This document shows, in pieces, positions 1,729-62,913 of a DNA stretch of 64,000 nt. The position numbers and the translations under genes were made by a program. Position 1 is the stretch's first letter. The number at the start of each line of letters is the position of its first letter. The notes under the pieces are model-generated. The model was given only the letters and a program-made list of their open reading frames with translations, ran no database searches and was not told where the DNA came from. This DNA is from Eledone cirrhosa (Eukaryota). The stretch covers positions 81,530,001 through 81,594,000 of the forward strand of contig OZ024746.1 of assembly GCA_964016885.1 (NCBI GenBank), written 5' to 3'.

Positions 1729-2022
1729 GTAGAGGTTATATTTAATTTGTTGGGATACAACAAGCAAAATATTTTTTATAACTGATATAAAGCACTCAAC
1801 AAATTATTGGAGTAAATATACAATATATTAACTATCCAGGAGATTCCAACCAGAATTGTTGCATTTTTTCAGGGTATGTCAATATTTATTTATAAAACTA
1901 ACCTATATTGTATTTTATCTGATGAAAGCCCACCATAGTTTGCCTTGGTGGCCCTTGAAATATGTATAATGAAATAAATATGGTTTAATAAAAATAGTTT
2001 CCATTTGTTAATATATTGTATA
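1729..2022 (+). mobile_element. Penelope-like element terminal fragment, family A, with inverted 3' tail on its left
   Basis: (TA)n on both sides; 1729-1830 is the reverse complement of the tail seen at 26570-26670; contains a hammerhead. Confidence 0.75.
1911..1976 (+). ncRNA. Minimal type I hammerhead ribozyme (family A)
   Basis: tattttat-CTGATGA-aagcccacca..tggtggccctt-GAAA-tatgta-TA-atgaaata; stem I pairs 8/8 with one GU. Confidence 0.8.
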
Positions 2023-5000
2023 TATATATATATATAGAGAGAGAATTAGCCGTCGAAACGGCTTGAGCTCAGCCGTCGGGGTCTTACTTGTTCCTATATA
2101 TATAGATATATATGTATCACCTTCACTGTCATTTCACTGTCATAGAGGCCGACTGGGGATCAAATACGACCGAGCTGCGACTATCCCAATATATAATATA
2201 AATGAAAGAATGGATGGATCGCTGGATTCGTATGTTCTTAATGATAATTAACTGGGTGAAGACTTATAGAGCAGCTTATGGCAAGCCATCACAGCGATAC
2301 CATGTCGATCTCCAGTCGAAGTATGTTTCTTATTTTGATGTTACAACCTTTCATTTTGCTTCTACTAACATGGTCCAACTGAAAAAAAAAAAAAAATCAT
2401 CGGCCAGGTGGTGCTATTAAGTTAGACATGGCCTGGGCCAATACTGGCCGTAACCTACCAAAGTTATCAAAGTTATCATTAAATTAAAATCAGCGAGGGT
2501 GATGCATGTGGCTGAGATAACGGAATGACGAATGTTAACCCACCCCAAAGGAATTTCGAGAGGCCGTGACGCCGAGGTTTTAGACGGTGACAATGATGAA
2601 CAGTAGTGTAAAGACAAATTTACCGCGCGCCGAGATTGTCACTAGTTTTCATTCACTTATGACGTAATATTATGACGCCATAATATCCCATTGTCTTCGT
2701 ATTTTTAACCTTATCAAAGACAGAGCAGTAATTTTTTTGGAACATACTTAACAATTTTAAAGGTGGAAAAAAGTCACAGCTTATGATATTCATGCATTTT
2801 AACTATTGTGATAAAAACAATATGGGGATGTTTAATATATATATTCATAAGCTAATCAGAAGAAAAAAGACTGCATTTTGGTATTGATGTGTTTGATAAA
2901 AACGGGAATTGTAGAACGGTGTCAGAATCGAAAACGTAGGCATATGGAAATTGCAAATGTTTGCAACAAAGTGAACTTTGATGAAGATAATCTTCTTGGT
3001 GATAGGAATCGAAATTTATTCGTCGATGAAATTTGTCGAGAACCTTCTGTCGTACTGCCACCAGCTAAGTGTAAAAATATTTCTTACCTCAATATTTATA
3101 GAGAGTAAGTGGATTGAATCTCCCTCAATATAATTTCTTGTTTTATAGATTCCAAGGATGAAGGCTTTTAGATCAACTTGCTTCCCTCGTTACGTGAAAT
3201 TTTACTGAGGTATACGTAAAGACAGTGAGATTTCATGTTCTTACACTCCCCGGGCCTTGCTAATCCGTCGTAGCACCAATCTTCAAACAGAGCACCTATA
3301 GCGTTATTAAAATGAACAAAATAGGATCCTATCCTAATTTTCAACATGTTAAACAGCTGGCTGATTGTATAGAACAGGGAAAACTATTTCAATACTATTC
3401 CGAGGAGATTCTTCACTCACACAAGCTTCTTAGATTTCCTGACCGCTAACATTTGCAAAAATTCAAAAGCAACATCAATCATATTTTCTCTCGTTGAATC
3501 ATGCTCTCTTTGTATTGTCCTTTCCCTTCTCAGTAACCTCTTGTATTTTAGTAGATTTAAGCCTTGCTTTGAGTAAGTAAATTAACAAAAGAAAAATTCC
3601 CTCTCTCAAAATTATCCTCTCTTTTTGCATCACAAGAACTCATTTTATTTTATCAATTTGATTGTATGCAAATTCCCCATTTTACTCATGAGGTCATTCG
3701 TATGGGAGCATTTTAACTAAATGAGAATTAAGTGCTTAGGAAATAAACATAGCGTTGCCGCGGCAACAGATTACGAACTGACTATCTTTCGATCGGTAGG
3801 GTAACATCTGACCAAATCGTTCAGCATTTAGTCTCTTAAAAATGGATATGAAATGGGTCAGGCAACGAACAAAACAAACAAGTATGTAAAATGAATGCAT
3901 GAGAATGTTTACAGTAGAGAAACACAATAAAACAGAGAACCTCCGGCAAATACAAAGATAATATTAAAAAAAAGAAGTCATGGCTGGCCGACAGTGAAAT
4001 TAAGTATTTCACCAGTGGTCAAAACTGTTTGTAAACCTGCAAACGTTAGTGGTGTAGATATCGAAATATTGGATGGCATGAAATCGAGACGATTCATACA
4101 TCACCGGTCCCGCGTGGGTGATGAAGACAAAGCTGGTACTGTCGTGATTTTCGTTATTTTGTAATAATGGACGTGTACGGTCAGATTTGAACAGCGCTGA
4201 ATGTGGATGAACATCCAAGTCTAATATGCTAAATGCAAGGGATTTCTGAAAACATCTCGTGTAAATAGATATGAATCACGCCCTACAGCTCAGTGTGTAC
4301 CAGTTAAGTACTTTCAGATAGCTAATGCGTCGGGCTTTTATCTTTCATTGAATCAATTGAGACCCCTCACTTTGCAATGTTTTCATATATATATATATAT
4401 ATATACATATATATATATATATATATTTAAATGTCGTACAATAGAATCCATTGGCAGAAGTAGAGCACGTCAGAGTTTGTGACCAGAACATAAAAACCCG
4501 ATGTTCTAATAATTCTGCCAACCCACCGCCCTGATCTAGTACTTTATTTTATTAATCTCGTAAAGAAATTGTGCTAATCACAACCCTGTTTGCATTTTTC
4601 ATTAGTAGTTCTACGCTACTGTCTGTCAACAGTTTGTAAAGTAGATATGAGTGATCTCTGGGTTTAACTCTTATTCCAAATGGCTGAAAGTCATGTAACT
4701 AACCATATGGACTATTTCCACTGTAAGACTAAATATACGTTCATATGGATATGAATCTATATACATATTTATTCATGACCCACCTTGTAGTAGTAATGTA
4801 GTTATTTATTTTATATTTTTTAATATGTTTAATGACCGAAAACAACCCGGTTTATCGGTGTACTCAATTGCGGTTAACTCATGGCTAGATAACTACACCT
4901 GCAACAAACAACGCAATAGGATGTGTTACTTCATTGTAAAGAAACTAGAGTTTACTTTCAAATAGGCAAAACGAGTAGTTAGACTTTTCCTCAGTGACCT

Positions 5001-6041
5001 TACTTCAATATTCATTACAAAGTGGCCCGTTGATCTGTCCGCATATCTTTACTCGGCTTGTTTTGCAGCTTTCGTTTAGCTTGCAGGCGTACTTGCGTTA
5101 GTTTATATTTGTTGTTGTTAAGTGAAAGGGTTGTGGTTGATGTTGATATATAATTGAAGTGAATTTATGACGACTGGTAGTCTACCTGCCTACAGAACAA
5201 GTAAATTACTATACAGTAATTGCATCACCGTCCAGCCCTTAAAACTAAAGCGGAATATATGTGTGTGTGTGTGTGTGTGTGTGTGTGTGTGTGTGTGTGT
5301 GTGTGTGTGTGTGTGTGTGTGTGTGTGTGCGCGCGCGCCCCCGCTTGTGTATGTTTGCGTGTGTGTCTATGCCTAGGTGCGGATACGAACGAATGAAGAG
5401 AGCAATCAATATACAATGTGGGAGTTAAATATATTTGTATTCTCAGTTTAACTTAATCATGCATTACCAATGGTTTCGTTTGACGTAAACACGTAAAACT
5501 CTTCAAACACTTTCTGAATAAGTGCAGAGTGGTTGCAGAGTATATTTTTATAGAACAGCGACATCAGTTATCTTTGTTTACTGGTCACGTGGAAACTCTG
5601 GTAAATAATGATAGATACAAGTAATAAGTAGTTTGCTTAATAAACCAAATTGGATGTGAAGGAGAGCGGATGTGGAAGAGAGGGTGTGTGTGTAAACTTG
5701 TAAAGTAAATTGGAAGACAATCTATATATGCATAACTTATTCTGAACATTCTGAATGATACATGTACTTGATACATGCGAACAGCGTATAATTTTTATTT
5801 TACTGGGAAAACGTTGGCAGCAACTTCGATCTTTCGGCAATGGTGACGTTTTGGCAGTCAGTATCGCTTATTTCTTCGGAATATGTACACACACGCGCGC
5901 GCGCACACACCACACACACACATACACACACATTTCATTGATTAATAATTATTTATAATTTTCTCTCTCGCTGAATATATATATATATATACATACACAC
6001 ACACATATATATATATATATATATATATATATATATATATA

Positions 6042-6204
6042 GCGAAGGAAAAGTGATAAGGAACCAGGTGGACCATAGCGCACCAAAGTACTCAATACTT
6101 AGGGTAGTAGAGTGGGTAATAGGAGTAAGTAAGACCCCGACGGCTGTACAGAATTAGCCGTCGAAACGGCTTGAGCTCAGCCGTCGGGGTCTTACTTACT
6201 CCTA
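6042..6204. mobile_element. Palindromic PLE-like terminal fragment, family D (also 2042-2095 and 6701-6912)
   Basis: Three near-identical copies bordered by microsatellite; inverted arms; carries GAAAC-ggct..agcc-GTC, the 3' half of a hammerhead. Confidence 0.65.
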
Positions 6205-6262
6205 TATATATATATATATATATATATATATATATATATATATATATATATCATACAAAGGC

Positions 6263-61372: not shown

Positions 61373-62241
61373 TAATTTAATCAATCCGCTAAAAGTCACA
61401 TATGACTATCTATAGTGAATTGACAACCAGTAGCTGAACATAAAAGCAACTCTGTCTCCCAAACGACGACGAGAAAGGTCCACGATATTGCAGCTGACAT
61501 TGTGATTATCAATTAACTGGATATAGTTCAATACATTTATCACAGGAACACATTCATGACTATTAATCTATTATCACTTGACTACGACATCAGTTGCTGT
61601 TGCTTAGATAGATCCCCGCTGAACAGAAATTGGATTGAACACATTGTCAAGTTTACTAATTGCAACCACTGGGGACATCAGAAACTCAACTTCTAGAACT
61701 AACAGTGCATACCATGCCTTAGAGAAATGATAAGATGACTGCAATACTTACATTCGCAACGCCCAATTTAGAGAACATTATCACACAGCACATCTCTCGG
61801 TACAGAGTCAGAGATTGTGGTAAAAATAAACAAATAGTAATTTTCTTATGTTCCCTGGATATTTTTCCTGGTTCTGAGACAGCCAGACAGTTGGAGTATC
61901 ATATCCACAGTACTACACCCCTACCTAAAGCCCTGCTTACTCTGGCTAGATAGCGTATGAAAGGCAAGGGTTGATTCTATCACGGTTGAGACGAATCGGA
62001 TTCTTACTAGCAGCAGAGGGATGAAAAATACAATTGTAGTTATAATAATTTAGTTTCTTTTACAAGCGCAATAAAGAGGCTTCTTTGGGTGCATTATATA
62101 TATATATATATATATATATATATATATATATATATATATATATAACGCACTCAAAGGAGCCTCTTTATATATATATATATATATATATATATATATATAT
62201 ATATATATATATATATATATATATATATATATATATATATA

Positions 62242-62498
62242 TTAAAATAACAGATTAAAGTTTAAGCAAAATAATCTCTTCCTGTCTTCCTTCGGTTGCA
62301 ACGTTTTTTGAAATATTCACTTCTGCGTTCACAGATTGACTTTGTTAGTTTCAGAAGATCCCGTTAAGGGTGAAAGCAGCGATTCTTTGCTTAAACTTTA
62401 ATCTGTTATTTTAATAAATATTTGCTCTACGGTTCTTATATATTTGATATATATTTATCCTTATCGAGCCCTCTTTGGATTTTAGTCTTCAAATTTAC
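62242..62498 (+). mobile_element. PLE-like fragment, family J, with inverted arm (homolog at 45093-45365)
   Basis: Inverted 62242-62270 vs 62386-62415; hammerhead-like cagaaga-tccc..ggg-tGAAA with mutated core. Confidence 0.55.
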
Positions 62499-62868
62499 TA
62501 TATATATATATATATATATATATATATATATATATATATATATATATATATATATATATATATATATATATATATACCCTCCCAAAGTATAACAATATAT
62601 ATATATATATATATATATATATATATATATATAGAGAGAGAGAGAGAGAGAGAGAGAGAGAGAGAGAGAGAGAGAGAGAGAGAATACACACACACACACA
62701 CACACATATATATATATATATATATATTGTTATACTTTGGGAGGGTCATGTTGCCAATAAAAAACACACGCACCAGTTGCTTTCACTTCAATTTATTATA
62801 ATAAATTTATAAATTTATAAATTTCTGGTTGGTTGGTTGGTTCCACAACCAGATAGTTGTTTATATAT

Positions 62869-62913
62869 AGTCATAGTTCTTTCGTCACACACTCTGTGAC
62901 CTCTTCAGTGACT
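62869..62913 (-). ncRNA. Minimal hammerhead ribozyme (family G)
   Basis: Minus strand: agtca-CTGAAGA-ggtcaca(gagtg)tgtgac-GAAA-gaac-TA-tgact. Confidence 0.82.

Follow-up and report, generated by a model that had tools for sequence, protein, structure and literature searches.

Penelope-like elements (PLEs) of the Hydra clade insert in (TA)n repeats, and a supplement to the survey of Craig 2021 (PMC8557442) lists both a hammerhead and a (TA)n preference for Hydra-1_Obim of Octopus bimaculoides; the one-sided tail of two-armed insertions is stated qualitatively in the part of that survey available to us. Minimal hammerheads have low activity and work as dimers (Cervera 2014), and hammerhead cleavage has been described, in the accessible part of a later study, as protein-assisted and dispensable for insertion in vitro (Frangieh 2024, PMC11167929). 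PLEs have also been proposed as the mobiliser of retrozymes (Cervera and De la Pena 2020, PMC7229834; Li 2026, 10.64898/2026.07.22.740005; both in part). A 2026 repeat annotation of Octopus vulgaris reports 31 recently active Penelope-like families, and the part of it at hand makes no mention of ribozyme or hammerhead. A literature search listed no paper dealing with retrozymes in octopus genomes or with how densely hammerheads occur there, most subscription papers lying outside its reach. Here we analyse the hammerheads in a 64,000-nt stretch of the Eledone cirrhosa genome (assembly GCA_964016885.1, contig OZ024746.1, positions 81,530,001 to 81,594,000), called the window below.

An original prediction, made from the letters of the window, had listed 13 hammerheads of seven families in (TA)n microsatellites and had taken their carriers to be short retroelements. 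We assign the hammerheads to nine families, A to I. In our reading, to which we give a probability of about 0.8, most of them are the 3' ends of 5'-truncated PLEs of the Hydra clade and of Neptune type lying in (TA)n, and two families, D and H, consist of tandem units that have no genes and that the same enzymes likely copy.

Hammerheads of the window and of the genome

We searched both strands with a type I descriptor consisting of the core, stem I, stem II within 60 nt, and a helix III that is either paired or self-complementary. The window gave 12 matches, compared with means of 0.01-0.04 and at most one match in any of 800 dinucleotide shuffles (200 each of the whole window, of 1-kb blocks, of 200-nt blocks, and of the repeat-stripped window); the reversed window gave 0. 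The original prediction had named dinucleotide shuffling as one of its checks, and the motifs came through it clearly. Elsewhere in the genome, forty evenly spaced 10-kb stretches (400 kb) gave 31 matches, 7 of them in one array of 482-nt units, vs 0.12 in shuffles. CTGANGA alone is about equally frequent in shuffles (20-23) and in the window (33), as chance matches in AT-rich, repeat-rich DNA would be, but the counts with the full descriptor, and the covariation described below, reduce chance to a negligible explanation. The hammerheads are real, of type I, and far above chance. That they are active as ribozymes we infer from their structure together with the findings of Cervera 2014 and the available part of Frangieh 2024 (PMC11167929).

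Ten of the 13 predicted sites pass the descriptor. Those at 28061 and 62869 fail it, with core, stem I and stem II present and a weak (short, damaged) helix III, and at 32014 no CUGANGA adjoins the GAAA. Two matches, at 36473-36553(-) and 43369-43420(+), were absent from the first list. Seven families (A-G) was the correct number for the sites listed, and H and I, which had been missed, bring the total to nine. The 13 sites correspond to 11 insertion events and include two mirror-image pairs. The (TA)n embedding claimed for them applies to both flanks of most; 28061 has no TA on its 5' side, and 32014, 32362 and 37781 each adjoin another element on one side. AATAAA, said to follow the motifs often, lies within 25 nt of the cut site at 6/13 sites, in three of the seven families.

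Genomic copies of each family were sought in the 3.0-Gb genome of the same species; each search returned 130-2435 first-look candidates, of which 40 were scored and the best-scoring 25-30 fetched. In 13 A-type motifs from the window and the fetched loci, 96% of 249 cells were paired, eight of nine stem II pairs had changed on both sides, and helix III had retained its self-complementarity. Three of five covariation measures were reached by 0/500 shuffles, a fourth by 4/500 and the fifth by 255/500, and slid-structure controls gave 35-51% pairing. Stem covariation among genomic copies is therefore present in these motifs, in a test that is partly circular because they were chosen from descriptor matches. 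Subfamilies of family I have exchanged stem I base pairs. At core positions, 19/1974 varied vs about 2% elsewhere, a comparison to which we give little weight because alignment ends and subfamilies inflate the variation elsewhere.

The 400-kb sample corresponds to one hammerhead per 13 kb, or about 230,000 in the genome (Poisson range 158,000-330,000; 180,000 without the array). The predicted density of about one per 5 kb thus holds in the window, which is about 2.4 times richer than the sample, and does not extend to the genome. The fetched DNA (1.45 Mb) contains 29 loose clusters of hammerheads, 19 of them with a fully self-complementary helix III; AATAAA occurs within 25 nt past the cut in 8/29 clusters and in neither of two control windows. 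About 38,500 hammerheads are present in Schistosoma mansoni, whose genome is small, giving a density similar to that seen here; the count in this genome is therefore high, but its density is not unprecedented. Counts reported for other animals reach up to 120,000 in the axolotl, exceed 6000 in a coral and are about 5000 in a mussel (Cervera and De la Pena 2020, PMC7229834).

An Rfam scan of the window showed no hammerhead family among the 150 listed of 470 matches, and microRNA models on TA/CA repeats dominated. Searching the genome with Rfam Hammerhead_1 (RF00163) gave 18 matches above the cut-off among 74 scored, and the five fetched belong to one family that is absent from the window. These best-matching loci (L341-L345) have an ACTC hairpin about 180 nt past the cut.

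Longer copies and their reading frames

The carriers had been predicted to be short stand-alone ribozyme elements, either solo pseudo-long terminal repeats (pLTRs) or retrozymes, with 5' ends of their own. Longer copies of six of the seven listed families, which account for 12 of the 13 sites, instead join open reading frames (ORFs) upstream that encode a reverse transcriptase (RT) and/or a GIY-YIG endonuclease (EN), and we therefore take these sites to be the 5'-truncated ends of autonomous PLEs. The traits of EN+ PLEs (5' truncation, inverted 5' copies, and a tail at one end) were found in A, B, C, E, F, G and I.

One of these links is seen in the window itself, where an ORF piece with a GIY-YIG match (PF01541, E 4.3e-5) lies 205 nt upstream of the 62869 motif. 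This family F insertion (62738..63588, minus strand) consists of an inverted long 3' end (63497-63588), the GIY-YIG C-terminal ORF piece (63114-63498), the hammerhead (62869-62914), and a short 3' end that runs into (TA)n. Longer F copies, arranged in partial tandems, encode an RT with YVDD, a CX4CX2C linker and GIY-YIG, and the best match to the protein is from Octopus vulgaris (69%). An older relative of family F, with 77% identity, lies at 28003..28143 (+) and has a hammerhead at 28061-28110 in which helix III is damaged.

The family C hammerhead is located 364 nt downstream of an RT+GIY-YIG ORF in L278, a link that L155 confirms. Within the window, C occurs as a 3' end at 10553..10793 (minus; hammerhead 10715-10753) and as a two-armed insertion at 37513..37852 with hammerheads at 37669-37707(-) and 37781-37819(+), the right arm being cut off by a repeat resembling a short interspersed element (SINE). 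An apparent tie of C to an EN in L094/L277 was rejected, as that EN belongs to a nested F-like element. Both C and F have a YxDD RT and a CX2-5CxxC linker ahead of GIY-YIG; by these sequence motifs, which fit Neptune and Nematis equally, they classify as Neptune/Nematis-type PLEs.

Families A, B, E, G and I lead to a second type of ORF. Family A lies about 1.4 kb downstream of an ORF with Hydra-clade motifs (L271-L273), G about 420 nt downstream of another, B about 1.0 kb downstream of a GIY-YIG ORF of this kind (L274), and E about 170 nt downstream of an EN C-terminus with Hydra-clade motifs (L256); coverage of the B and E ORFs stops at the EN part. The tail of family I enters the start of an ORF with RWR and DKT (L318). 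In A, B and G a CxCx5C linker is present, as it is in the RT of L330 that is linked to family I; the stretch of E covered does not extend to the linker. CxxC and CxH occur at the EN end of A, B, E and G. A Hydra ORF in L283 was considered as the parent of family G and rejected, since the ORF is not of family G. Judged by motifs taken from the available part of Craig 2021 (PMC8557442), not by an RT tree, these five families are Hydra-clade PLEs.

Family A is two-armed at each of its three positions in the window. At 1729..2018 (+), within (TA)n, an inverted long 3' end (1729-1832) is followed by a 5'-truncated arm with the hammerhead (1911-1976) and a short 3' end; at 26401..26669 (+) the hammerhead occupies 26471-26536; and at 32235..32549 each arm has one, 32362-32426(-) and 32443-32507(+). 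Family B is represented by a 3' end at 6984..7296 (+), with the hammerhead at 7097-7151 and AATAAA directly past stem I, and by a tail at 14972..15121 (+) that is truncated downstream of the hammerhead and has no ribozyme. Family E is two-armed at 14738..14945 (minus), where the hammerhead (14769-14808) lies on the minus arm and the plus arm ends within the core, and again at 44070..44293, a degenerate copy with a mutated core. The end of a family I element at 43358..43495 (+) includes the hammerhead at 43369-43420.

The family G 3' end (31967..32239, minus) explains why the 32014 site lacks an adjoining CUGAUGA. In intact genomic copies of G, 90 nt separate CUGAUGA from GAAA; in the window these lie at 32232-32226 and 32028-32025, with the predicted cut after 32017, and the 90-nt stem II domain is interrupted by a 90-nt SINE-like piece (32069-32158) with a 17-nt duplication. 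We apply the label "SINE" to this piece as our own assumption. SINE-like pieces occupy the identical point of the G stem II, with the identical 17-nt duplication, in the window (32052-32175) and in L171/L305, which are one locus (90 and 190 nt); L294 apparently has one there too, making this a repeated insertion site. Descriptor matches with 80-100 nt between CUGANGA and GAAA, like G, were also seen in L154, L188, L046, L183, L012, L077, L151 and L175. Long stem II domains may be common in the genome.

Stand-alone elements would account for the shortness of most copies, for the single start point that many C copies share, and for the non-coding units of D and H. However, 5' ends vary widely, the fixed 5' end of C is an artefact of the query at a TA microhomology, longer C copies enter the ORF, and seven of the nine families join ORFs. 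We consider it highly improbable that all of the motifs belong to such elements. Other parts of the original prediction were borne out: the hammerheads are minimal, of type I and of the PLE kind, with self-complementary helix III, and they form a large and diverse TA-targeting population. The suggestion of retrozyme-like elements survives for one listed family (D, site 14133) and for the unlisted H, and not for the remaining six listed families.

Insertion ends, tandem units and a possible route of copying

Among all arms in the fetched DNA, 310/433 had a 3' end directly at (TA)n, vs 4-12% of random positions. These ends fall into two clusters per family, at 50 and 140 nt past the cut in A, 55 and 152 in B, 120 and 158 in C, 140 and 178 in D, 35 and 103 in E, 157 and 216 in F, 50 and 199 in G, and 10-20 and 85 in I. 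Both sites lie within the first codons of the next ORF in F, and at the start of the next ORF in I. Family H has a single cluster at 259, with 23/25 loci ending at unit position 259-270. Where an insertion was two-armed, it combined one long with one short end in 97/105 cases, a pattern found for D in 12/17 two-armed loci. None of the 25 H loci was two-armed, vs 63/122 in A, B, D, F and G (p 2e-7), the families whose queries had no junction; C, E and I were excluded because their queries favoured one form.

Alternating TA of 4-5 nt was present at 6/11 readable start sites, vs 11% of positions (p 6e-4). In A, B, E, I and H, a hairpin of the form ACTC-N2-14-GAG, expected by chance at 0.5% per position, lies 6-10 nt past the upstream start; it was not found at this place in G, C or F and is at best degenerate in D.

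Neither D nor H was seen to have a gene. The D unit is 437 nt and wraps round, the arm exceeding one unit in 5/25 loci, with none exiting into an ORF; the H unit is 627-629 nt, occurs up to 3.5 times in tandem, and exceeds one unit in 7/24 distinct loci. Each unit has one type I hammerhead, that of H being of the monomer type with a full helix III of 6-7 bp, and the longest stop-free runs on the sense strand of the two units are 52 and 62 codons. The fetched DNA showed no sequence that ties D or H to a family with an ORF. The window contains a two-armed D insertion at 14061..14312 (+), with the hammerhead at 14133-14182 and a partial mirror core at 14087(-), and 0.6 of an H unit, resembling a non-LTR retrozyme, between (TA)n runs at 36220..36596 (minus; hammerhead 36473-36553). 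An octamer motif occurs once per D unit and once per J unit and is absent from H; a search of the literature for a promoter role of this motif yielded nothing usable. The H unit is also covered by contigs of two runs whose kind is unrecorded; one contig spans the unit junction, which tandem DNA also explains.

A further retrozyme-like family was noticed in L255:1-3700 (G000:C11:15000001), an array of at least seven units of 482 nt. Every unit includes a minimal hammerhead and one octamer motif, with a (TA)n in its interior; the circular fold has z -14 (15 shuffles).

Local tandem amplification from PLE ends has been proposed (Li 2026, 10.64898/2026.07.22.740005, in the part available), and D and H, each read as DNA at 25 loci, might be pLTR fragments that DNA-level duplication turned into satellites, or they might be arrays of pLTRs from autonomous elements with ORFs beyond the sequence covered. 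Against this, their copies, dispersed over many chromosomes, end on the 3' side at the same one or two exact points, in (TA)n, with 5' ends that vary even beyond one unit; D follows the long and short pattern; and the circular folds are far more stable than those of shuffles (z -3.8 for H and -9.4 for D, 15 shuffles each). We judge a DNA-level or array origin to be improbable.

Copies span the cut site, and the template would therefore be uncut or circular RNA. In the mechanism that we infer, the GIY-YIG endonuclease would cut the TA repeat, and the RT would prime on both sides of the break. Each priming would use one of two fixed internal sites lying 10-260 nt past the hammerhead, aided by 2-5 nt of TA microhomology. 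The RT would then copy upstream across the uncut hammerhead and usually stop early, leaving mirror-image stubs; the stubs would retain the hammerhead because it sits just upstream of the start sites. The ribozymes would cut a tandem precursor RNA, mostly as dimers via the palindromic helix III. D and H RNAs would act as tandem or circular templates, H likely using a Hydra-type enzyme at one site only.

Several results weigh against this account. Family G, though of the Hydra clade, has no start hairpin, and a similar motif is also found in SINE-like repeats. No excess of A>G on the sense strand, as a trace of an RNA stage, was seen in 8 families. The monomer stability of single motifs is not unusual (z -2.6 to +0.5); the minimum free energy (MFE) fold of the monomer differs from the hammerhead in D, E and partly A; and among the dimer MFE folds, only those of B, C and E clearly show an extended helix III. 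The unscored candidates of D and H (2435 and 1559) may include a parent with an ORF, and the copies compared are the best-scoring 25-30 per family, a choice that biases them toward the window copy and its junctions.

A different role for helix III is conceivable, in which the palindrome would mainly pair two template RNAs for a dimeric RT, one at the long and one at the short site on the two sides of the cut TA repeat, and H, whose hammerhead folds as a monomer, would recruit a Hydra-clade enzyme as a circular retrozyme, via a copied start hairpin, and insert with a single arm. Such pairing would explain the long and short rule of the two-armed insertions, but family I is two-armed despite a helix III of 4 bp, and we hold the idea to be unlikely. 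If true, the PLE hammerhead would gain a function, and the enzyme responsible for moving a retrozyme would be identified.

Neighbouring repeats and comparison with known systems

The window contains other TA-bounded repeats. A fold-back element at 6042-6202 and 6701-6910, present in 77 fetched loci, has an ACTC...GAGTAC motif and, in these copies, no hammerhead core; it is probably the tail of another PLE-type family. Eight TA-bounded repeated islands, each in 8-62 fetched loci (45088-45207, 62243-62498, 6518-6634, 28271-28657, 28886-29036, 44312-44479, 36007-36196 and 44530-44785), are likely ends truncated ahead of their hammerhead. Broken reading frames at 17104-18096(-), which we take to resemble a hAT-type transposase, gave no significant Pfam match, and in 18168-18995 a 40-nt unit is repeated in tandem about 21 times, the copies being 95% alike.

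Two questions, the role of the hammerhead in the PLE cycle and the identity of the enzyme that mobilises animal retrozymes, can now be tested at the bench, and the contrasting insertion behaviour of D and H provides a natural comparison. This genome adds scale, with roughly 200,000 motifs in dozens of families, and copies that are young and have clean junctions; it is also a source of many natural minimal hammerheads, one of them with a 90-nt stem II domain.

As far as the available parts of the sources go, A, B, E, G and I resemble the Hydra clade of Craig 2021 (PMC8557442) in their C-terminal GIY-YIG, CxCx5C linker, and CxxC, CxH, RW[KR] and DKT motifs, as well as in the hammerhead near the 3' end, the (TA)n preference, the inverted 5' copies and the tail at one end. 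They differ in that this one window contains five Hydra families, vs one listed octopus family (a comparison by features), in that tails are 67-149 nt vs 30-40, and in the long stem II domain of one family. C and F, with RT, GIY-YIG and a CX2-5CxxC linker, resemble the Neptune and Nematis PLEs of the same survey. The anole Poseidon element PAc (Frangieh 2024, PMC11167929) likewise has an AT-rich target, and its RT starts internally at two neighbouring sites within the 5' part of the following ORF; these start sites are reported to be non-homologous to the cut DNA, whereas 6/11 here have 4-5 nt of alternating TA.

The motifs share with the minimal hammerheads of Cervera 2014 a short stem I, a palindromic helix III and, in F, an unpaired base at the 5' end of stem II, and here too most motifs occur singly and derive from truncated PLEs, paired motifs lying on opposite strands at a distance of 100-700 bp. 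They are more numerous and diverse (29 loose clusters in 1.45 Mb), and H has a full helix III of 6-7 bp. D and H resemble metazoan non-LTR retrozymes (PMC7229834; Li 2026, 10.64898/2026.07.22.740005) in that their tandem units are non-coding, low in GC and equipped with a single type I hammerhead. Unlike those described so far, in the parts of these sources available, they show the insertion marks of PLEs, namely fixed internal 3' ends, a TA target and, for D, two arms. Hammerheads in such PLEs, their (TA)n preference and an octopus Hydra family have already been published; new here are the families and their great abundance, together with two units that resemble retrozymes and differ in their PLE footprints.

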